From the IMG/VR virus record IMGVR_UViG_2565956608_000007, positions 1 through 42,407 of that record: a stretch of DNA of 42,407 nt. The stretch is one strand, 5' to 3'. The position numbers and the translations under genes were made by a program. This document shows, in pieces, positions 1 through 42,407 of the stretch (its first letter is position 1; every line of letters begins with the position of its first letter). Under the pieces are notes generated by a model, which made no database searches, was not told the DNA's origin, and saw only the letters and a program-made list of their open reading frames with translations. The DNA is from a virus. Its lineage: Duplodnaviria; Heunggongvirae; Uroviricota; Caudoviricetes.

Positions 1-1506
<1,506 letters not shown>

Positions 1507-1530
1507 ATAAAAAAGCCCGCATCAGCGGGC
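1507..1530 (-). terminator. Rho-independent terminator (minus-strand orientation) between attL and csiD
   Basis: GCCCGC-ATCA-GCGGGC hairpin at 1515-1530 preceded on the plus strand by AAAAAAAA, i.e. followed by a T-run on the minus strand. Confidence 0.5.
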
Positions 1531-1662
1531 TTTAATGTCATAGGGAGTCGCGACTCCGTTGCGTATCCTTTTTTGTCTCCTCACCGTCTGGTCGGTGTCC
1601 TGCTGAGACTTATAACTTCCTGTTTTTGTTGGTGTAGTCCTTACACCGTCCAATCATGATTG

Positions 1663-1692
1663 GCTGGCGGGAGTTGAACTCGCGTCCGAAAT
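1663..1692. repeat. attL core: 30-bp copy of the ssrA 3'-region sequence (GCTGGCGGGAGTTGAACTCGCGTCCGAAAT)
   Basis: 29/30 identical to 41355-41384, which lies inside the intact ssrA gene; about 120 bp beyond the integrase stop. Confidence 0.65.
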
Positions 1693-1742
1693 GTATTTAA
1701 CTCATTGAAAATAAACATTTCTATTGCTGTTATATACCTCAA

Positions 1743-1759
1743 GTGCATTTTACGTGCAT
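1743..1759. repeat. 17-bp direct repeat GTGCATTTTACGTGCAT (left arm), candidate integrase arm-type or accessory site
   Basis: Identical 17-mer at 41239-41255, both on the prophage side of the att cores. Confidence 0.45.
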
Positions 1760-1814
1760 ATTGAGGTCTGTCTAACGTCCTGATTCTGTCCAACATTTTG
1801 AAATATTTCCCCCG

Positions 1815-2987
1815 CTACAGCGCGGCTGAAATCGCGGTTTTACCGTCATATTCAGCCAGGTATTTACCGTAGTTGCGGAATATCATTTCCGGCCCTTTGT
1901 GGCCCATCTGTCCGGCAAGCCAGAATAGGTTAACGCCCTGGCTAATATGCTTGGTGGCGAATGTGTGCCGCGTCTGGTACGGGTTACGATAGCGCACGCC
2001 AGCTTTTTTCAGGGTCGGCACCCATGCTTTTTTACGGATAGCGTCGGCGTTCGCCCAGGGGTCTCCCGTTTTCGGGTCGCTGAATATGAACTCACTTTTC
2101 ATGAAGGTGTATTGCTTCTGCGCCTGCAGGGCCGCCAGCGCCTCACTGTTCAGCTCCACCTTTCGGGTACCGGCTTTTGTCTTGGTGCCTTTAAGTACCC
2201 CTACGACACTGGCCGCCTGAACGTGGGCTGTGTTCGCGATGGTGTCGAGATCAGGCCAGCGCAGCGCGCACAGTTCGGAGCTCCGCAGACCGGTATTGAA
2301 AGCAAAGCGGAACAGGTTTTCCCATTCCGGGTACCTGCAGCTCTGGTAAATGGCGAGGGTCTCCGCTGGCGTGAACGGGTCAACCTCGTAATCGTCGGCG
2401 CTCGGGCTGCTGTCGATCACGTGGTACCGGCTGGCGCTGACGAGGGTTACCGGGTTAATGGTCAGCAGGCCATCCGTAACAGCTTCATCGATGGCGCTGC
2501 GCAGAAATGAAAGGTTATTCCTGGTCGTTTTCAGTTTTGTTTTCCGGCTGGCTATCCAGTTTTTAAGGACCGCTGGCGTCAGTTCTGACACGTGGAGTTT
2601 ATGCAGGGCTGACAGCGCCGACAGGCATTTTTCATAACCGTTGATAGTCGACGGGGACAGGTTGCGGTTCTGGCAGATTTTCAGGTACTCGTCCAGGTAA
2701 GACTTTATGTTTTTGGTTTTCTTCACCACCCCGAACAGCTCCAGTTTTTTGGAGTTGGGGAAATATTTCGCATATTCAAAGGTGCCACTGACGATCTGGT
2801 TTTGTATCTCCCCGAGCAGGCGCTCGGCGTACTTAACACCGCGCGCGTTTGCTTCCATTTTGGAGAGGGGCTCCCGGCACAGAACCCCTTTGTATGTGAA
2901 AGTGATAACCAGAGTGTCGCCAGTTTTATGCTGGCGGATGGTTACTCCTCTTGGGAGAGATAATGATCCTTGTTCTTTCTTGCCCAC
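1815..2987 (-). CDS. int: tyrosine integrase (lambda-type site-specific recombinase)
   Basis: 390-aa ORF with C-terminal R..HxxR..Y catalytic signature (RHTFATKHI ... RNYGKY); 3' end abuts attL. Confidence 0.9.
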   Translation of the reverse strand: MGKKEQGSLSLPRGVTIRQHKTGDTLVITFTYKGVLCREPLSKMEANARGVKYAERLLGEIQNQIVSGTFEYAKYFPNSKKLELFGVVKKTKNIKSYLDEYLKICQNRNLSPSTINGYEKCLSALSALHKLHVSELTPAVLKNWIASRKTKLKTTRNNLSFLRSAIDEAVTDGLLTINPVTLVSASRYHVIDSSPSADDYEVDPFTPAETLAIYQSCRYPEWENLFRFAFNTGLRSSELCALRWPDLDTIANTAHVQAASVVGVLKGTKTKAGTRKVELNSEALAALQAQKQYTFMKSEFIFSDPKTGDPWANADAIRKKAWVPTLKKAGVRYRNPYQTRHTFATKHISQGVNLFWLAGQMGHKGPEMIFRNYGKYLAEYDGKTAISAAL

Positions 2988-3151
2988 TTCGAAACCTCCG
3001 TTAAGTCAATCCAGCGTTCTTTAACGCCATCGACTTTTAATACATGTACTCCCTCCTTCCATAACCCCCTTTGTATCCGTTTGTTAACGGCTTCTACCGT
3101 TTCCCCCGCGTCCCTGCAGTATGTAGAAAGGGGTACACAGTCAAGACTCAT
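2942..3151 (-). CDS. xis: excisionase-like DNA-binding protein (start chosen at internal ATG)
   Basis: Small ORF overlapping the int start by 46 nt; lambda Xis-like pattern (ETVEAVNKRIQRGLWKEGVHVLKVDG); upstream in-frame start at 3202 also possible. Confidence 0.55.
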   Translation of the reverse strand: MSLDCVPLSTYCRDAGETVEAVNKRIQRGLWKEGVHVLKVDGVKERWIDLTEVSKWARKNKDHYLSQEE

Positions 3152-3440
3152 GGCTGACCTCCTGCCCGAAAGCCTGGGCATTTTCCAGTTCATTAGCGGC
3201 ATAAATCAGGGCGTTGTGATGCGCGCGAAAACCACCATCAAGTTCGCGAGCAGCTCTGTCGCGCAAGATGTCGATCGCAGCCTGATAGTCATTCTGGTAA
3301 TCGGCCGAACTGGCCGGCAGCTCCGCCAGCACCATCAACATGTTTTCCGGGTCGATGGGAATGGTGGCGAGCCCAAGCTCTTTGGCCTCCGCCGCTAAAC
3401 GGGTCCAGCGTTCAATAATTTCAGTGGTACCTTTTTTCAT
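3141..3440 (-). CDS. hypothetical protein (early left operon)
   Basis: 99-aa ORF with GAGG ribosome-binding site upstream of the ATG at 3438-3440. Confidence 0.5.
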   Translation of the reverse strand: MKKGTTEIIERWTRLAAEAKELGLATIPIDPENMLMVLAELPASSADYQNDYQAAIDILRDRAARELDGGFRAHHNALIYAANELENAQAFGQEVSHES

Positions 3441-3448
3441 GGCATGCC

Positions 3449-3544
3449 TCAGAAACCTATCAAAAATTTATACTCAATCAGCGCGCCGAACACGACGGCC
3501 ACCAGCAACAGGCCAAACAGCAGAGAAAGGAAGAATGCTTTCAT
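3449..3544 (-). CDS. small hydrophobic peptide, 31 aa (MKAFFLSLLFGLLLVAVVFGALIEYKFLIGF)
   Basis: ATG overlaps the stop of the upstream gene as ATGA; AAGGA ribosome-binding site; single predicted transmembrane helix; below the size cut-off of the ORF track. Confidence 0.35.
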   Translation of the reverse strand: MKAFFLSLLFGLLLVAVVFGALIEYKFLIGF

Positions 3545-3762
3545 TTTCTGTCCTTCAGTTTGCTGTATCGTTCATGGCTCATTACTTCCCAGTTCTGGCC
3601 GCCGTCTCGGGACAGCAGCCGCCAGCGGCGATTAACCCTCAGGCTCAGGTTTCCGGAGCGGTGCATACGGCAGGGATGAATTCGCCTGGCTCTGAACTGG
3701 CGGAGCACATGGACCGCCTGCAGGTGCACCCACTCAGGAATTCGTATCGCTGTCAGGGCCAT
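3541..3762 (-). CDS. hypothetical basic (Arg-rich) protein
   Basis: ORF from internal ATG at 3760-3762 with AGGAGA ribosome-binding site; tight packing with neighbours. Confidence 0.4.
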   Translation of the reverse strand: MALTAIRIPEWVHLQAVHVLRQFRARRIHPCRMHRSGNLSLRVNRRWRLLSRDGGQNWEVMSHERYSKLKDRK

Positions 3763-3946
3763 TGTCCTTCTCTCCTGCTGGTGGGGTGATCGTGTAACCG
3801 GCGCGTTCAGCCATCCATAAAAAAGTCTCCAGCGATGCTGTAACCTCTCCGTTCTGAACCGGGCGCGCGTGGATAACTTTCCCATTCTCGATTGTCAGCA
3901 CGATATTTACTGGTTCGTGCGTGATAATTGGTGTCTGATCACTCAT
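3734..3946 (-). CDS. hypothetical protein
   Basis: 70-aa ORF from ATG at 3944-3946 with GGAG ribosome-binding site; overlaps the upstream gene end by 8 nt. Confidence 0.45.
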   Translation of the reverse strand: MSDQTPIITHEPVNIVLTIENGKVIHARPVQNGEVTASLETFLWMAERAGYTITPPAGEKDNGPDSDTNS

Positions 3947-4304
3947 GGCTTGTCTCCGCTGTGACTGATTTTTTTTTCTTGGCAAACTCGACCACCTCAG
4001 CAATGAGATCGTCGATTAATGCCTTTCCGCTTTCTGTCAGGAATTCACCGCTGCCATTAACATCAACAGCGCTGCTGTAAATTCCCTTGATAGCTTTTAC
4101 GCCTTCGACATTCCCGTACTCACTGATCGCAAGCCTTTCGAATTTTCTCAATAATCCATCAAGAAGAATCTCTGTTAACTCGACCGTGTTAATGCCGCCT
4201 TTATTGAGCTTAATAACAAGGCAGTTACTGCCTGTTTTACGCTGGTGGCGTAATAACGCTGCCTTTAAAATTCTGCGTCGGTAGGTGTTGATTAAATTAT
4301 CCAT
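3939..4304 (-). CDS. hypothetical protein
   Basis: 121-aa ORF with strong GAGGAGG ribosome-binding site upstream of ATG at 4302-4304. Confidence 0.6.
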   Translation of the reverse strand: MDNLINTYRRRILKAALLRHQRKTGSNCLVIKLNKGGINTVELTEILLDGLLRKFERLAISEYGNVEGVKAIKGIYSSAVDVNGSGEFLTESGKALIDDLIAEVVEFAKKKKSVTAETSHE

Positions 4305-4338
4305 TGCGCTGCTCCTCCTCCAAACTAATAACTATTTC

Positions 4339-4518
4339 CTATTCTTTTTCGGTCCAGTCATGAATATCAGAGGCTAGGTCATAAACAAGAGCGCAAATCG
4401 TTTTAAGTTGGAAGTGGTCGAGCTTGTCGTGATATTCAAATAAAGTTTGCGACAGACCCGCTAGTTGCTCATCTTTGATATTCACGCCCTGAATATCCTG
4501 CCTTGTTAAAATGCTCAT
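4339..4518 (-). CDS. hypothetical small protein
   Basis: ORF in early left operon; start chosen at internal ATG (MSILTRQ...); weak ribosome-binding site. Confidence 0.3.
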   Translation of the reverse strand: MSILTRQDIQGVNIKDEQLAGLSQTLFEYHDKLDHFQLKTICALVYDLASDIHDWTEKE

Positions 4519-4624
4519 AATTAACGTCCGTATGCTTTTTTTAGGTAAAGACGAGCGATTACCTCGTAACCGCAAGCCGCATAAAGGCATGCTGTTCTAT
4601 ATGCCGATTTATTAATGATGAAAG

Positions 4625-5017
4625 TCATACGAAGCGCCTCACAGCCAAAGAAGCGACCACCCGACCGTGAATTTTGATTTCTTTCTGTTCATCAGCATTA
4701 AGGGTGAAAGTTTCGTAATGATGGTTATCAGAGATGATTTTTAATGAGCCATCAGCTAATGGCTCAATTCTCTTAATGAAAAGGCATGGGCGACCAAAAG
4801 CATCCATTGTGTAAACATAAATTCCAGAGGTAAGCGCACTTCCACCGCAATCAACGAAAGCCACAACCTCACATGGTTCGATGGTCGGCTGCATTGAATC
4901 ACCTTCCATCCGGCAGCTTTGAACGCGGTTGCCAAAGTCATTAATGTTGTCAGATCCGAACAGCATCTGAGGCGTTTTAATTGGCTTATTAATTGCGACG
5001 GAATTTTGCATTCTCAT
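4625..5017 (-). CDS. stand-alone S24 (LexA/UmuD-like) peptidase-domain protein
   Basis: 130-aa ORF with GDSMQP serine motif and downstream FIKRI lysine motif typical of S24 peptidases; no HTH domain; GAGG ribosome-binding site. Confidence 0.7.
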   Translation of the reverse strand: MRMQNSVAINKPIKTPQMLFGSDNINDFGNRVQSCRMEGDSMQPTIEPCEVVAFVDCGGSALTSGIYVYTMDAFGRPCLFIKRIEPLADGSLKIISDNHHYETFTLNADEQKEIKIHGRVVASLAVRRFV

Positions 5018-5077
5018 TTCCTCAGGGTGAGTTTGGCCCCACCAAGAAAGGTGTTAATTGAATAATGTTAATTAATT

Positions 5078-5509
5078 TTAAATCTTGTCGGCTTGCTTGC
5101 AGATGGTTTCTTGCAAGTCGTCTAATTTTTCATAAACGATAGTTAGCGTACCGATAGCCGACAATTCCGGAGGCATACAATCCATAGCGTTGGATAAAGC
5201 CATTCTGCAATTGCCAATATCCGCAGACCATGAATTAAGTTGATTGGAAGTTATAATGCTTGTTGGCTCTGTAAAATCACCACACTGCTCGTTTCCTGAA
5301 ATGAGCCACAGAACATCAGAATGAAGAATGTTAGCCAATTGGATTAACTGGTCAGCAAACGGAACAGTTTTTTCCGTTTCCCAGTTGTTAATGGTTTCGG
5401 TTGTTAAACCAAGATGATCAGCCAAAAAATCCTGAGACAGTCGAAGCGAAGATCTTTGATTTAATATTCTTTTGCCGATGGTTTTGGCTACGGTGATTTG
5501 AGTATTCAT
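5078..5509 (-). CDS. HTH (XRE-family) DNA-binding protein, first gene of leftward early operon
   Basis: 143-aa ORF with N-terminal helix-turn-helix (LRLSQDFLADHLGLTTETINNWE); preceded by operator-like palindromes. Confidence 0.7.
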   Translation of the reverse strand: MNTQITVAKTIGKRILNQRSSLRLSQDFLADHLGLTTETINNWETEKTVPFADQLIQLANILHSDVLWLISGNEQCGDFTEPTSIITSNQLNSWSADIGNCRMALSNAMDCMPPELSAIGTLTIVYEKLDDLQETICKQADKI

Positions 5510-5552
5510 TTCATTGGCTCCGTTGTTTGCCGATGAATGAACTTTAAGTCAT

Positions 5553-5572
5553 GCAATAACTTATTGCAATAA
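5553..5572. promoter_or_regulatory. OL-like operator: overlapping palindromes GCAATAAcTTATTGC and TTATTGCAATAA
   Basis: Perfect 12-bp palindrome at 5561-5572 and 15-bp near-palindrome at 5553-5567 upstream of the leftward operon; the TTATTGCA motif recurs once in the cI-cro intergenic region (6457-6464). Confidence 0.5.
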
Positions 5573-5669
5573 CAAAACTTATTTTTCTTTTGCGATTTAG
5601 TTTAATGCATTGATTTTTTTGATTAAATTTTGTTATTAAACTGCATACTTACAGCTACAGACAAAGAAA

Positions 5670-5689
5670 AAGCCGCTTAAAAGCGGCTT
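5670..5689 (-). terminator. Rho-independent terminator downstream of the repressor gene
   Basis: AAGCCGCTT/AAGCGGCTT inverted repeat, followed on the minus strand by a T-rich tract. Confidence 0.5.
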
Positions 5690-5710
5690 CAAAAGGTGGG
5701 GTGTTGAAGG

Positions 5711-6409
5711 TTAGAGCCTATTGTAATTGATTGATTCATGCATTATGGCTTTACCCATCACGTAAAGGTCATCTTGGTTTTCTTCCGTGATATACCATTT
5801 CTCATATGCCGGATTATCCGATAAGACTGCCAGCCTGTTTCCCTGCATCTGGAGACGTTTTAGGTGAAATGTTTTACCAAAAACAAAAACATACACACCA
5901 TCCGTTAGAAAGTGTCGGACGGAAATGTCTACGAAGACACGATCACCGGAATTGAACGTGCTGGCCATGCTGTCGCCATTGACGGTCATTACTTTTACGA
6001 CATCTTCACTACGATTCCCGAAGAGGGATTTTGCATGTTGAGTCGTGAACTCAATAGCGTGTAAAACCTCCACATATTCTGAAAGCATGAACGTGCCAGG
6101 CCCTGCACTCACTGAAAGGTCAAGAACCTCGACCCTGAATATGCCAGCGTTATCCTTTACCTCCCTTTCGGGCATGGTCTCTATCACATAGCCCTGTCTA
6201 TGAGGCACATGATTTTTTCCAGTTGATAGCCATTCAGGGCTCACACCCAGCGCATTAGCAATCTCAACCAACTTACGTGTTGTGTTGGTTTTGCCTGCAA
6301 CAAGACGCCAGATAGCTGGTTGCGAAACCCCAACTTTCATCGCTAATTCTGCCTGTGTAAGGCCTGCGTCAACCATCGCTTTTTGAAGACGATCTGAGAA
6401 TGTGTTCAT
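5711..6409 (-). CDS. cI: CI-like prophage repressor (HTH + S24 autopeptidase domain)
   Basis: N-terminal HTH (LTQAELAMKVGVSQPAIWRL) and C-terminal S24 motifs (GDSMAS ... FHLKRL); divergent from Cro-like gene. Confidence 0.85.
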   Translation of the reverse strand: MNTFSDRLQKAMVDAGLTQAELAMKVGVSQPAIWRLVAGKTNTTRKLVEIANALGVSPEWLSTGKNHVPHRQGYVIETMPEREVKDNAGIFRVEVLDLSVSAGPGTFMLSEYVEVLHAIEFTTQHAKSLFGNRSEDVVKVMTVNGDSMASTFNSGDRVFVDISVRHFLTDGVYVFVFGKTFHLKRLQMQGNRLAVLSDNPAYEKWYITEENQDDLYVMGKAIMHESINYNRL

Positions 6410-6518
6410 ACCAATAAGCCTATACAAAAAGTTATTAAGTGGCAAATACGATAAGTTATTGCATAAAGTTATTCAAGGCTATACTCTTTCCCTATGTTCA
6501 ATAACTTTTGGTATTTTT
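6410..6518. promoter_or_regulatory. cI-cro intergenic operator/promoter region (OR-like)
   Basis: Four copies of AGTTATT/AATAACT (6430-6436, 6454-6460, 6467-6473, inverted at 6500-6506) between divergent repressor genes. Confidence 0.55.
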
Positions 6519-6746
6519 ATGATCAATCAACATGTCAAGAGAGCTATCGATATTCTCGGCGGCCAAGCTGCATTAGCAAGGGCGTGCGGGGTTACTCAAC
6601 CGGCTGTATTTCGCTGGCTTAATGGTAGCCGGGTTAAGGCTGATCATGTCATGTCCATTGTTAAAGCTACTGGTGGTGAAGTTAAAGCCTACCAGATCCG
6701 CCCAGACCTTCCAGATACATTCCCTCACCCGGGCAATGAGGTGTGA
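6519..6746 (+). CDS. cro: Cro-like / YdaS-like HTH protein
   Basis: 75-aa product MINQHVKRAIDILGGQAALARACGVTQPAVFRWLNG; divergent from cI; start taken at internal ATG to avoid overlapping the cI start. Confidence 0.65.
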   Translation: MINQHVKRAIDILGGQAALARACGVTQPAVFRWLNGSRVKADHVMSIVKATGGEVKAYQIRPDLPDTFPHPGNEV

Positions 6747-6747
6747 T

Positions 6748-6957
6748 ATGTCGCACTCAATCACTACCGAAAACCAAATTAAGCCATTGGATATCGATTA
6801 TCGCGATCCGCGCGGTGTGATTGTGCATGTCACCGGCTGGAATCGGGATAAGCAGCAGGTGTATTTCACCAGGCAGAATTATCCGCATGAATGCATGCAG
6901 CCTGTCTGGAAGTTCCAACAATATTTTACAAAGGTCTCGGAGGCGCAAAATGCGTGA
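6748..6957 (+). CDS. hypothetical protein
   Basis: 69-aa ORF with GAGG ribosome-binding site directly after the cro stop. Confidence 0.5.
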   Translation: MSHSITTENQIKPLDIDYRDPRGVIVHVTGWNRDKQQVYFTRQNYPHECMQPVWKFQQYFTKVSEAQNA

Positions 6958-7315
6958 TTACGGAAAGGTGTCGTCTGAGTTTTGGTTAGACCAGAACGGC
7001 AACAAATGGAAAGTGCCCACGATCAAAGGTCGCCTGAAAATGCGCGTACCCTGCCATCGCGCACTACGCGAATTTGTTCTTTGGCGCGACGGTTTCAAAT
7101 GCCGTCATTGTGGTAGTCAAGACCGCATTAAATTGGTCGCAGATCACATTGTATCGCGACGTAACGGTGGGGCTCACCACCCAGACAACATGCAGTGTTT
7201 GTGTGATTCCTGCAATGCGCGCAAGGCATCCCTGGTTGATGCCAAATTCCAGCCAAGGCCTGATGTAAGTGAGGTTATTTGTTCTGATGGAGGGGTGATT
7301 GATGGCACGCATTAG
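6950..7315 (+). CDS. HNH endonuclease
   Basis: Cys/His motif CRHCG ... DHIVSRRNGGAHHPDNMQCLCDSCNARK; GGAGG ribosome-binding site. Confidence 0.75.
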   Translation: MRDYGKVSSEFWLDQNGNKWKVPTIKGRLKMRVPCHRALREFVLWRDGFKCRHCGSQDRIKLVADHIVSRRNGGAHHPDNMQCLCDSCNARKASLVDAKFQPRPDVSEVICSDGGVIDGTH

Positions 7316-8312
7316 AACAATTAAACCTGAGTTCTGGACTGATGAGAAGATTGTCGAATGCTCATTTGAGGCGCGCCTGATGTTTATCGGAATGTTCAAT
7401 TTTGCCGACGACAAAGGCAATCTGGTGCGCTCCCCGAAGCGTATCAAGATGCAGATTTTCCCTGCGGACATGATCGACTGCGAGCCGTTAATTAAAGAAC
7501 TTAGCCTGGCTGGGTTAATCAGTGAGTATTCAGTGAATGGTGTTGAATATATTCACATTGATGGTTTTTCTAAACACCAGAAAATTAACCGACCATCCGC
7601 AACAACAATACCTACTCCAGAAGAAGTCGCTGATAGCTCACGGAAACCAGCACCTAATTACATGGATGGTTCAGTGAATGATGATGAAAAACAAACATAT
7701 GATTCACATGCAAGCAATGGAGTTAACACTGAGGACTCACTGAGTGCTCACGGCGAACTCACTGACGGAAGGGAAAGGAAGGGAAGGGAAGAGGAAAGGA
7801 ATAAAACTAATTTGTCCGATTCGAATCGGACTGATGGCGATAAACCTGACGAGTCGAAAGGGAAACCTTCACAGGAAAAACCTGATTCAGAATCAGATGA
7901 TGCTGAAGGCCAAGATCCAGTCGATGTCGCTTTCGAAAATATTTTTTGGGGGGCAGGTCTGAGAAAGGATGCCAAGGTCAAGGCTAAGTCAGCGTTCAGG
8001 ACCAAATATCGCGACTGGAAAAAAGCGAACCGAGGTACGCCTGAGAACTTCGCCGTTATGCTGGCTGAAGATATCAGCCTCCGGGTGAAAACACAGCAAA
8101 TGGGGTTCGACAAACTCCTGCCAGCGTCATACCTGAACGGAGAGCGCTGGAACGATGAAAAACCAAATGGAGCTCCTCAGATATCCGCAAGCGCAAACGC
8201 CATCGGTGGGACAGGGGCTTCCTGGTTCGCAAAACCAAGTGACGGTTCGGCTGAGGTATTTATCAGCCAGGCAGCCATTGACCGCATGAAGCGCGGAGCT
8301 AACCGCCCATGA
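7302..8312 (+). CDS. putative replication initiation / replisome organizer protein
   Basis: N-terminus ARIRTIKPEFWTDE resembles conserved phage replication-protein N-domains (recalled, not searched); position upstream of the primase-helicase; acidic low-complexity linker. Confidence 0.5.
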   Translation: MARIRTIKPEFWTDEKIVECSFEARLMFIGMFNFADDKGNLVRSPKRIKMQIFPADMIDCEPLIKELSLAGLISEYSVNGVEYIHIDGFSKHQKINRPSATTIPTPEEVADSSRKPAPNYMDGSVNDDEKQTYDSHASNGVNTEDSLSAHGELTDGRERKGREEERNKTNLSDSNRTDGDKPDESKGKPSQEKPDSESDDAEGQDPVDVAFENIFWGAGLRKDAKVKAKSAFRTKYRDWKKANRGTPENFAVMLAEDISLRVKTQQMGFDKLLPASYLNGERWNDEKPNGAPQISASANAIGGTGASWFAKPSDGSAEVFISQAAIDRMKRGANRP

Positions 8313-12465: not shown

Positions 12466-12682
12466 GTTTCCCCTCCTTCTGAGAGAACTCACGGCAATGA
12501 AGTATTGACCGGCGGAATGATTTCGGCGTAATTTGTTTGTGTGGTGAATCCTTTCTAAGCGAAAGGGCGTTCCAGTCAACTGCTATCTGCAGGTATGCGC
12601 GCGGCTTTGCTGACTGGGGTAGAGTCACCGGGAGGCACCCGGCACCATGACAACAACAATACAAGTTTCAAATTCCTTGAGA

Positions 12683-12710
12683 GCCTGCCATAAAACGCAG
12701 GCCTTTTTTT
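12683..12710 (+). terminator. Rho-independent terminator
   Basis: GCCTGC-loop-GCAGGC followed by TTTTTTT. Confidence 0.55.
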
Positions 12711-12860
12711 ATGGTTTTGCAAACTGCTGCTACGCTTTGAGTTGTGGGAAGTAACTGAATGCCCGGTGGTTCTCCTGGACCGATAGTGAATCAGCCGATA
12801 CAGCTTCACCTCTGAGCATAAGTCTTACTCACACCTACCTTACAAATAGTCAACTCATTA

Positions 12861-39624: not shown

Positions 39625-40668
39625 TCATATTAAAGCTTTTCGTAAAAGCGTCTTCCCAATTAAAACACCTTTTCGCTCTACAGTTTTATGCGCAAAATAA
39701 CAAACTATAAATAACAATGTTAATATTTGAATGTTGCTGTTGATATATGGGATTTGTAATTTTGAAACCACTAGTGACAAAGTATACCAAATCCAGTTAT
39801 GGAACAAGTATACAGCATAAGTCATTTCAGACAGTAAATTGCATGCTTTGGATTCAATGAATTTATCTCTAAACAACCACGAAACAAGGAAAATAATAAC
39901 TCCTGTAAATGCGTAGTTGTACTGGCCCCAGAATGGATTTATTTTCTCAATGAGAGATAAATGCAGATAGAACATAATTACGATGGATGCTAAAGCAATA
40001 ACCCGATTAACTAACTTATGCTCTACAAGATACACTACTACACCGATAAACAAAAATGGCGTATACAATGTAAAGTAAGCATTATGAAAATCATTAGCCA
40101 CAGGGAAAGGGTTAATGCTGGATATAAAAAACGATACAACAAGAAGGAGAACAGTCAAAACGTTTCCTTTGTTTATTATACCAGCTTTTTTAACTAATCC
40201 CATAAACACGTAGAACATCATTTCTATTCTTAGTGTCCATTCTACGCCAGCTAATGAAAGTGGAGTGTTAAAGAAATCACCTATGAGCAAAAGTCTTGGG
40301 ATTAGTATAGTTAGAGGTGGAACACCAGCACCGTTATAATACTGAACTAACATTTCTGCAATAACTGCAAAAATGTATAAAGGATATATTCTAAAAATCC
40401 TTTTTAAATAAAATTCAAAAGTTGCTTCTTTTTGTAAAACGTGGGTTATGATATATCCTGAAACAAGAAAGAAGATTACAACCCCCATAGCCCCACCGAA
40501 ACTGGCATCGGCAAGTAGACCGTAAAATGATCTAAGTGTTACGTGGTTACTTGGATCGCTCGCCCACGAAGCTAAATCTTTGTTGAACTTGTGGCCTAAC
40601 ACCACAAGAGAGAATGCAAAGATACGCATGTAATCTAAAAAAAGAATTCTACGATTGTTCATTTTCAT
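39625..40668 (-). CDS. acyltransferase family 3 membrane protein (OafA/Oac-like O-antigen acetyltransferase)
   Basis: About 347-aa polytopic membrane protein with acyltransferase-3-type N-terminus (RILFLDYMRIFAFSLVVLGH); markedly AT-rich; located between tail genes and attR. Confidence 0.75.
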   Translation of the reverse strand: MKMNNRRILFLDYMRIFAFSLVVLGHKFNKDLASWASDPSNHVTLRSFYGLLADASFGGAMGVVIFFLVSGYIITHVLQKEATFEFYLKRIFRIYPLYIFAVIAEMLVQYYNGAGVPPLTILIPRLLLIGDFFNTPLSLAGVEWTLRIEMMFYVFMGLVKKAGIINKGNVLTVLLLVVSFFISSINPFPVANDFHNAYFTLYTPFLFIGVVVYLVEHKLVNRVIALASIVIMFYLHLSLIEKINPFWGQYNYAFTGVIIFLVSWLFRDKFIESKACNLLSEMTYAVYLFHNWIWYTLSLVVSKLQIPYINSNIQILTLLFIVCYFAHKTVERKGVLIGKTLLRKALI

Positions 40669-40809
40669 CAAAATCTTATTGTTGATGAGGCTATTTTATA
40701 GCATGAACAGCGAAATTCATAACAGGTTGGTGGTTGGGGTGGTGAAAAATCTCATCATGGAAGAAAAATCTGGCTGTCAGCGTTTATTAATGCTGGCAGC
40801 CAGCACATT

Positions 40810-41076
40810 TTACAGCCCAACCTGGCGAACTGTCGGGAACTCAGAAACCAGCCACATATCGGCCTCTTCAAACATATCCTCCAGCATGCGGTTGAGTTTT
40901 TCCCGATCGTTTTTGCTGGCATCGCTATTCAAGCCGTTCGCCTGCATCGGCTTCACCCTCACTTCGGCATCAGGGAAGATCTGGTGCACTCGCTTCGTCA
41001 GCTCAGCCAGGATAATCTCTCTGGCCCCTTCAAGTCCCTCTACATTTCGCTTGTCATAAACCAGTTCAACGAACAT
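40810..41076 (-). CDS. dinI: DinI-family protein
   Basis: 88-aa ORF resembling DinI (acidic C-terminus EEADMWLVSE); GGAGG ribosome-binding site; two LexA boxes upstream. Confidence 0.7.
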   Translation of the reverse strand: MFVELVYDKRNVEGLEGAREIILAELTKRVHQIFPDAEVRVKPMQANGLNSDASKNDREKLNRMLEDMFEEADMWLVSEFPTVRQVGL

Positions 41077-41095: not shown

Positions 41096-41135
41096 CTGTG
41101 GTTGTATACAGTATTTTTACTGTAAAAATAAACAG
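41096..41135. promoter_or_regulatory. two tandem LexA (SOS) boxes
   Basis: aCTGTggttgtatACAGta at 41096-41111 and taCTGTaaaaataaACAGtg at 41120-41135, both fitting CTGT-N8-ACAG; 20-60 bp upstream of the dinI-like start. Confidence 0.7.
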
Positions 41136-41195
41136 TGTCAAGGCATGGGCTGCGCGAGGAAGGGAAGTATTTTTGTTACCCTTAGTTACAAATAG

Positions 41196-41230
41196 AAAAA
41201 CCCCAGACCGTGAGATCTGGGGTTCTTTTA
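41196..41230. terminator. bidirectional Rho-independent terminator downstream of ssrA
   Basis: CCCCAGA-loop-TCTGGGG hairpin with A-run 5' and T-rich tract 3'. Confidence 0.55.
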
Positions 41231-41238
41231 AAGTGCAC

Positions 41239-41255
41239 GTGCATTTTACGTGCAT
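41239..41255. repeat. 17-bp direct repeat GTGCATTTTACGTGCAT (right arm)
   Basis: Identical to 1743-1759. Confidence 0.45.
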
Positions 41256-41347
41256 TTTTTTGTCTTTTCTCGGTCTGCGCTCTGTCTGGTCAGAGTCCGT
41301 AAGTAGCTGTTTTTATTGCCGCTGTCCGGTTGTAGTCCTATCAAAAG

Positions 41348-41710
41348 TGGTGGAGCTGGCGGGAGTTGAACCCGCGTCCGAAATTCCTACATCCTCGGTA
41401 CTACATGCTTAGTCAGTCTTTACATTCGCTTGCCAGCTGCGGACGGACACGCCACTAACAAACTAGCCTGATTAAGTTTTAACGCTTCAACCCCAGGCAG
41501 GGCTTCCACGCGATCTCTTTTGGGTTTGACCTCTCTTGATCCCCGTCCTAAGAGCGGAGGCTAGGGAGAGAGGGCTCTAAGCAGGTTATTAAGCTGCTAA
41601 AGCGTAGTTTTCGTCGTTTGCGACTATTTTTTGCGGCTTTTTACGAGGCCAACCGCCCCTCGGCATGCACCTTGGGTTTCGCAAATCCCGTCGAATCCAG
41701 AATCAGCCCC
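41348..41710 (-). ncRNA. ssrA: tmRNA (transfer-messenger RNA, SsrA)
   Basis: Minus-strand sequence begins GGGGCTGATTCTGGATTCGACGGG and ends ...GGTTCAACTCCCGCCAGCTCCACCA; 363 nt; directly downstream of smpB. Confidence 0.95.
41355..41384. repeat. attR core inside ssrA (GCTGGCGGGAGTTGAACCCGCGTCCGAAAT)
   Basis: 29/30 identical to 1663-1692. Confidence 0.65.
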
Positions 41711-41924: not shown

Positions 41925-42407
41925 TTAACGGTGGGCATTTTTCATGATACGCGCTTTATCCACCTGCCATTCGCGTTCTTTGATATCTGAACGTTTATCG
42001 TGCTGTTTCTTACCTTTGGCGACGCCGATTTTCACTTTGCACCAGGCATTTTTCCAGTACAGGGAGAGCGCCACTACGGTATAGCCTTCTCGATTGACGC
42101 GACCGTACAATGAGTCCAGTTCGCGCTGGTTGAGAAGTAACTTGCGGGTACGGGTAGGATCGCACACCACATGCGTGGAGGCCACAGCCATTGGCGTGAT
42201 GTTAGCGCCAAACAGAAATGCCTCTCCGTCGCGCAGAAGGACATAGCTGTCGCTGATATTGGCTTTTCCTGCGCGCAGGGATTTAACCTCCCAGCCTTGC
42301 AGGGCAAGTCCCGCTTCGAACTCTTCTTCGATAAAGTATTCGTGACGGGCGCGCTTGTTAAGCGCGATGGTCGCTGAACCAGGTTTATGTGCTTTTTTCT
42401 TCGTCAT
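41925..42407 (-). CDS. smpB: SsrA-binding protein SmpB, complete
   Basis: 160-aa translation [58 protein letters not shown]... recognised as enterobacterial SmpB. Confidence 0.95.

Follow-up and report, generated by a model that had tools for sequence, protein, structure and literature searches.

The 42,407-nt stretch of DNA analysed here (the window) is E. coli chromosome, with glaH at one end and smpB and ssrA at the other, and it contains about 39.7 kb of phage DNA between glaH and ssrA/smpB. The evidence strongly favours the interpretation of this DNA as a prophage related to phage LMessi, integrated at the tmRNA gene ssrA, that restored the 3' end of the gene with phage sequence and displaced a host 3' end in which a 5-nt deletion (the scar) was already present. 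The ssrA-like sequence at the left end of the prophage is, with a high degree of confidence, its distal junction (P-O-B'), made up of a phage arm, the shared core and the host 3' end minus CTCCA.

The coordinates of the relevant features are collected in Table 1. ARAGORN and Rfam identified ssrA as the only tmRNA gene in the window, and Pfam and PHROG assignments outlined a prophage gene content encompassing Int, Xis, a CI-type repressor, a primase/helicase, terminase, portal, major head, tail sheath and tape-measure proteins. A tyrosine recombinase gene adjoins the att junction and a 3' segment of ssrA forms a direct repeat at both ends of the element, as expected for site-specific integration. 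In the orientation of ssrA the left junction corresponds to attR, and it can be termed attL in window coordinates only. Two open reading frames overlapping this junction, of 51 aa (1641-1796, minus strand) and 60 aa (1477-1659, plus strand), returned no Pfam match and were discarded as spurious.

Table 1. Features of the window relevant to integration at ssrA.
Feature	Position	Strand	Basis
glaH (csiD), host flank gene	1..978	-	325-aa ORF; annotated glaH in matching E. coli genomes
B' arm: host DNA 3' of ssrA at unoccupied sites, original tmRNA trailer	1480..1662	-	Base-for-base identical to the NC101 empty site
Original host terminator hairpin, 3' of the displaced end	1512..1533	-	Terminator-like AAAGCCCGCTGATGCGGGCTTT followed by a T run; downstream of ssrA in NC101
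Perfect 14-bp palindrome CCAATCATGATTGG	1650..1663	.	Sequence and alignment to attB
5-nt scar site: ssrA C356-A360 (CTCCA) lost, equivalently U357-C361	1662..1664	-	Gap relative to NC101 attB
Displaced ssrA-like core, 30 nt, one mismatch at 1680	1663..1692	-	Repeat match to ssrA
Phage P arm, core to int	1693..1814	-	Colinear with LMessi attP
Tyrosine integrase with arm-binding domain	1815..2987	-	Pfam Arm-DNA-bind_2 and Phage_integrase; PHROG integrase
Excisionase	2942..3202	-	PHROG 2917 excisionase, E = 1e-40, residues 16-84
Acyl_transf_3 O-acetyltransferase (possible O-antigen modifier), ssrA-proximal cargo	39625..40671	-	Pfam/PHROG
DinI-like protein, ssrA-proximal cargo	40810..41076	-	Pfam/PHROG
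Phage P' arm, trailer of the working ssrA	41172..41347	-	About 90% identical to and colinear with LMessi attP
Putative phage-supplied intrinsic terminator for the ssrA transcript	41196..41227	-	Hairpin of 14 pairs and T run on the ssrA strand; conserved in LMessi
Intact ssrA (tmRNA, tag ANDENYALAA)	41348..41710	-	ARAGORN and Rfam, 295.8 bits, full length
smpB, host gene upstream of ssrA	41925..42407	-	160-aa ORF; annotated smpB in matching genomes

The left copy of the repeat (GCTGGCGGGAGTTGAACTCGCGTCCGAAAT) and ssrA positions 41355-41384 are identical at 29 of 30 positions, and a comparable match was obtained in none of 100 shuffles, with zero expected by chance. Beyond the core the copy continues as ...CCAGCCAATCATGATTGG. 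Read in the sense of ssrA, it presents ...CGCCAGCCAATCATGATTGG where the gene presents ...CGCCAGCTCCACCA, and the longer readings are ...ATTTCGGACGCGAGTTCAACTCCCGCCAGCCAATCATGATTGG and ...ATTTCGGACGCGGGTTCAACTCCCGCCAGCTCCACCA, respectively. The first-pass annotation of this DNA, made from the letters alone, had described a 30-bp core followed by divergence from ssrA, and these results bear it out. The patchy similarity it reported outside the core is also real: TGTTTTTGTT at 1621-1630 resembles TGTTTTTATT at 41310-41319, and TGTAGTCCT at 1633-1641 is matched at 41331-41339. These short outlying similarities are explained by the host-side arm and the phage arm 3' of ssrA being about 65-70% homologous overall. 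One point needs correcting: the likeness to the tmRNA end does not stop at CCAGC. Alignment to attB revealed a 5-nt gap past CCAGC, and the CCA with which 'CCAATC' begins, on the far side of this gap, is the CCA end of the tmRNA itself; the same CCA, in ssrA sense, forms part of the palindrome at 1650-1663.

The origin of the left copy was addressed by searching 5,426 complete E. coli genomes, a collection that does not include the genome of the window, with the left flank joined in silico to ssrA. Unoccupied sites were detected in 709 of these genomes, with the joined sequence present in one piece and always 5 nt longer than the query construct. In one of them, NC101, ssrA ends in ...CCAGCTCCACCA and is directly followed by ATCATGATTGG..., the left flank of the window; the ATCATGATTGGACGGTGTAAGG... 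immediately downstream of ssrA in this genome reproduces that flank base for base. The 5-nt gap is the sole difference found in the comparison of the NC101 attB with window positions 1480-1662, and in the NC101 alignment the unoccupied attB equals the outer halves of the two junctions except for the scar. A gap of 5 nt at the same place is also observed relative to the distal junction of the same phage in strains 25-07338 and isolate 44. The match to the empty site argues that the left copy is the original ssrA 3' end of the host and its trailer, minus CTCCA (tmRNA positions 356-360). Without these bases the acceptor stem is short of four of its seven pairs, the G3-U357 alanine identity pair among them, and the discriminator base is gone as well. 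The first-pass annotation had doubted that the copy was simply the original host end, and had conceded that an empty-site relative with the left flank following a normal CCA end would reveal its core boundaries to be misplaced. Such relatives exist, and the 3' boundary of its core was indeed misplaced; the copy thus appears to be the host end after all, but one that carries a 5-nt deletion.

The complementary evidence comes from free phages. The attP of LMessi (PP925823.1) reads P arm-GGGTTCAACTCCCGCCAGCTCCACCA-CTTTTGATAGGAC... and continues with the trailer and hairpin terminator that the window has 3' of ssrA; it also contains an intact ...CCAGCTCCACCA and the CTCCACCA end. When window positions 41100-41363 are joined to 1672-1830, the result is colinear with the LMessi attP region (88.5% identity over 416 nt) and shows no break at the joint, so that the LMessi attP equals the joined prophage ends with an intact gene 3' end in place. 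An intact CCAGCTCCACCA is likewise present in the attP of phages PhiR12_5 and LLS. Since the joined ends rebuild an attP colinear with that of LMessi, and the latter is intact, the working tmRNA most likely owes its end, trailer and terminator to the phage, the phage DNA encompassing at least the last 7 nt and at most the last 24 nt of the gene. Positions 41348-41355 (the CTCCACCA end) are phage-derived, and the stretch up to 41348-41371 may be as well. The terminator now serving ssrA (41227 to 41196) belongs to the phage, and the original host terminator (1533 to 1512) is unused. The earlier proposal that the terminal nucleotides of the intact tmRNA and its terminator were supplied by the phage is hence corroborated by the LMessi attP. 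In addition, the 15-mer TGCATTTTACGTGCA has exactly two copies in the window, one per arm (1744-1758 and 41240-41254), against 0.12 occurrences expected, and is a candidate arm-type integrase site.

The position of the exchange can be narrowed down from the single mismatch in the core. The A in ssrA-sense GCGAG (1680) is phage-derived and travels with the same P arm in 25-07338 and isolate 44. Because GCGAG A accompanies the P arm in these two strains, the exchange is placed, in ssrA sense, 3' of position 1680; the first difference between the arms, which has to be 3' of the exchange, sets the other limit. The crossover hence maps inside GTTCAACTCCCGCCAG (1664-1679 and 41356-41371), which spans the T-loop and the 3' strand of the T-stem into the acceptor strand, setting the ends of the prophage to within this 16-nt exchange interval. 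The alternative raised in the first-pass annotation, a crossover away from the block of identity, is not sustained by the phage-derived A or by the colinear attP. The 5-nt gap falls 3' of GTTCAACTCCCGCCAG, and the displaced copy therefore differs from ssrA 3' of the crossover, the arrangement that defines an ssrA switch.

These results can be assembled into a putative sequence of events. The Int of a complete-looking, LMessi-like temperate phage with a contractile tail would have carried out recombination between attP and the T-loop/3' segment of E. coli ssrA. The attP would have brought along a perfect copy of the ssrA 3' end (GGTTCAACTCCCGCCAGCTCCACCA) together with its own trailer and terminator, and the displaced fragment would comprise the P arm through GCGAG A, the shared core, and the host 3' end and trailer minus CTCCA. 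The scar allele, CGCCAGC-----CA, would already have been present in the lineage and been kept while the elements at ssrA were swapped, the present phage integrating either into a scarred ssrA, which it would repair, or as the tandem neighbour of an older element that has since disappeared. Excision mediated by Int and Xis, with the exchange 5' of the scar, is predicted to return the scarred end to ssrA and generate a tmRNA-defective cell, yielding an attB that reads ...CGCCAGCCAATCATG (scarred ssrA) and an attP that reads ...CGCCAGCTCCACCACTTTTGATAGG.

Conservative site-specific recombination deletes no bases. Strains 25-07338 and isolate 44 both have the P arm of this phage, with its A, next to an intact displaced ...CCAGCTCCACCAATCATG. 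Because this P arm adjoins an intact copy in other strains, the present phage did not create the 5-nt scar; an origin in its recombination was rejected on these grounds and in view of the intact attP of free phages. Identity with the attR lesion of CP4-57 in K-12 was also dismissed, since T357 is the sole base missing there. Within the E. coli collection, the P-arm junction was matched at 96.8% identity at best.

A 33-mer spanning the scar was located exactly in 542 of the 5,426 genomes, at 550 places, some genomes harbouring two copies, and it lay under an annotated ssrA in 0 of 40 sampled rows. No fewer than four different elements adjoin the scar, three of which sit on identical or nearly identical flanks. 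In UTI89 it adjoins a prophage with an Int 67% identical to that of the window, a different P arm and three cargo genes between int and att; in EC21GDE043, a P4-like element; in H22, a P2-like prophage with an integrase essentially unrelated to the window Int; and in O157 strain 272, the O157 island, which has only CGCCAG in common with ssrA. The flank at window positions 1-1662 is 100% identical to that of UTI89 over 1,662 nt and one base off that of EC21GDE043, and NC101 differs from it at 14 positions. With three near-identical backgrounds presenting the same scar beside three elements, the simplest reading is an inherited scar and swapped elements. On the basis of the shared flanks and parsimony, it is probable that the scar predates the present phage, as an inherited allele beside which elements have been exchanged. 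The suspicion, in the first-pass annotation, of an att history more complex than one event is thereby endorsed by the identical scar beside the UTI89 prophage and the EC21GDE043 element.

The 5-nt loss is one of several alleles of the displaced copy. The intact form, represented by H2 and CFT073-type genomes, was estimated by row sampling at about 400, and the form lacking T357, typified by CP4-57 in K-12, at about 500 by the same procedure. A 4-nt loss, as in A36, yielded 78 exact matches, and the 5-nt loss of the window and UTI89 is that present in the 542 genomes. This graded series suggests that the CCACCA/C-run stretch is deletion-prone. Only 1 nt (C) of microhomology was found flanking the scar when looking for a basis for recurrent 5-nt deletion; stepwise loss (T, then CCA, then C) would fit the allele series, as an unproven route. 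Some displaced copies (e.g. in NZ_CM129847.1 and NZ_CP116916.1) represent additional alleles that exceed the 4-nt-loss form by 1-2 nt.

The main competing explanation posits that the phage entered an intact ssrA and that the displaced end lost 5 nt independently after integration. Displaced copies are under no selection, small deletions of 1, 4 and 5 nt are all seen at the same spot, and the scar sits on at least two B' haplotypes, one B2-type and the other O157/K-12-type. Given these haplotypes and the Salmonella case in the literature, the scar must have arisen more than once or moved by recombination. The authors of PMC10107115 also suggest that such switches are acquired independently after integration. 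Against this, decay in place would have to account for the identical scar beside a different prophage on the identical 1,662-nt UTI89 flank, and beside a P4-like element on the EC21GDE043 flank with its one mismatch. Three identical 5-nt deletions, with 1 nt of microhomology, on near-identical backgrounds are an unlikely coincidence, and we regard post-integration decay as improbable.

Two further scenarios locate the origin of the left copy elsewhere, and both fare considerably worse. If the attP of the phage carried a pseudo-end with the 5-nt deletion and the crossover took place 3' of the scar, ssrA would derive wholly from the host and the left copy wholly from the phage, and both observed junctions would follow exactly, with no later mutation. 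The attPs of LMessi, PhiR12_5 and LLS all present the intact CCAGCTCCACCA, however, and two other strains have an intact copy next to this P arm. Such an exchange would moreover have only 3 nt of identity (CCA) available, and the same scar accompanies integrases that are essentially unrelated (H22) or different (EC21GDE043, O157 strain 272), all of which renders this scenario very improbable. The least credible option, to which we assign almost no weight, is that the left copy is the remnant of an older island, part of a tandem array, between the prophage and the host flank. Published work describes tandem arrays at ssrA, and the genomes with two scar copies (the 550 places in 542 genomes) are in line with it, but the segment that runs from int across the P arm and into the core aligns colinearly with the LMessi attP and the DNA beyond the core is that of the empty-site attB down to glaH, leaving no room for a remnant. 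Between positions 1480 and 1815, no DNA was found that is neither host nor LMessi-like.

The favoured explanation, with a scar older than the present phage, admits an extension that we put forward tentatively and consider somewhat less likely to hold than to fail. The scar could be a heritable allele that outlives the elements beside it, leaving about 10% of E. coli genomes with a permanently defective host tmRNA end, their tmRNA function dependent on continuous occupancy of ssrA and each incoming phage repairing the gene through its attP. If true, this would constitute a ratchet in which lysogeny is rewarded and curing is penalised. The published view is a different one: there, each switch is taken to have been acquired on its own, following a given integration.

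The arrangement in the window is a further instance of the known ssrA phage regulatory switch, with a different element. In PMC10107115 and PMC5148205, excision of CP4-57 (K-12) and CP4So (Shewanella oneidensis) is described to move a one-base lesion (U357) to ssrA and to inactivate tmRNA, and this is presented as a phage regulatory switch. As in the window, CP4-57 provides ssrA with a working 3' end and a terminator, the displaced host copy (psaA) is defective, and the B' trailer belongs to the same sequence family; excision of CP4-57 passes the defect to ssrA, as is predicted for the window element. The K-12 lesion, however, is a single-base loss (T357) instead of 5 nt, and CP4-57 is a degraded P4-like island with IntA/AlpA, whereas the window contains a complete-looking tailed phage with a lambda-type Int/Xis pair. 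No significant similarity was detected between the window Int and K-12 IntA (best E = 0.63). The window element hence resembles CP4-57 at the att site, but by its gene complement, with an Xis assigned to PHROG 2917, it falls outside the CP4-57/P4-like family.

The exact 5-nt allele is shared with other elements. Table 1 of PMC10107115, which draws on Williams 2003, lists CGCCAGC-----CA for RS218 (Eco48X), O157:H7 EDL933 (OI-108) and Salmonella LT2 (Stm27X), and the displaced copies of RS218/UTI89-type Eco48X, OI-108 and Stm27X are in this respect like that of the window, even though the UTI89 prophage differs in its Int, P arm and cargo as outlined above. The same table gives CGCCAGCTCCACCA as the displaced copy of Fels-2, SopE-phi and CFT073 Ecoc48X. 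These share with the window the integration site and a 3' end restored by the phage, but their displaced copy is intact, as in H2, 25-07338 and isolate 44, and their excision is predicted to be harmless. LMessi and its relatives phiES15 and phi467 resemble the window element in having an Int 94% identical (LMessi), a colinear attP and the same arm motif, trailer and terminator. Unlike the window element, LMessi is a free phage with an intact attP that has no bearing on the scar of the host, and the P-arm bases next to the core differ (GACACGGG and GACGCGAG). The allele frequencies, the persistence of the scar across element turnover and the WB61 isolate described below go slightly beyond the literature read.

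When a fusion of ssrA and the scarred trailer was used to query the 5,426 genomes, a gap-free match was obtained in a single genome, WB61 (NZ_CP020025.1, 4046-4404). The full-length ssrA of this isolate ends in ...CGCCAGCCAATCATG and abuts the trailer and ypjA with no island; the single ssrA of WB61 thus combines an empty site with the loss of 5 nt from the acceptor stem. Acceptor pairs are missing or broken in the Rfam alignment, which scores 270 bits versus 296, and ARAGORN built only an aberrant 407-nt gene, not the normal 363-nt gene. The WB61 tmRNA is presumably defective, and WB61 may represent the predicted excision product of a scarred lysogen, or else an artefact of assembly. The structure of the molecule, with acceptor pairs, G3-U357 and the discriminator gone, points to the scar inactivating tmRNA, and PMC10107115 reports that excision-induced ssrA mutations placed in E. 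coli tmRNA abolished trans-translation. Pfam and PHROG assignments indicate that both int and xis are intact in the window prophage, and curing it is predicted to yield a tmRNA-defective cell relying on ArfA. The persistence of the lesion through element turnover, hinted at by these data, bears on the persistent occupancy of ssrA and on the safety of prophage curing.

Several additional observations were made on the att region and the prophage. The palindrome CCAATCATGATTGG starts with the tmRNA CCA end in the intact attB and is conserved in the attP of phage LLS. The two copies of TGCATTTTACGTGCA, itself an imperfect palindrome (TGCACGT.AAAATGCA region), are overlapped by a promoter-like site and a hairpin at 1747-1774 (minus strand) and 41230-41258 (plus strand). 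The early region of the prophage contains a match to the STnc100 sRNA family at 12512-12714 on the plus strand (Rfam, 55.7 bits versus a gathering score of 47). Furthermore, the host trailer and terminator (1480-1662) share 85.8% identity over 162 nt with the P' arm of LLS (PQ299149.1, 2500-2700), and in UTI89-type lysogens the 23 nt that follow ssrA are the same as the first 23 nt of the host trailer. The likeness of the LLS trailer therefore indicates that some ssrA phages carry a near-copy of the whole host trailer, giving long homology between attL and attR apart from the scar.
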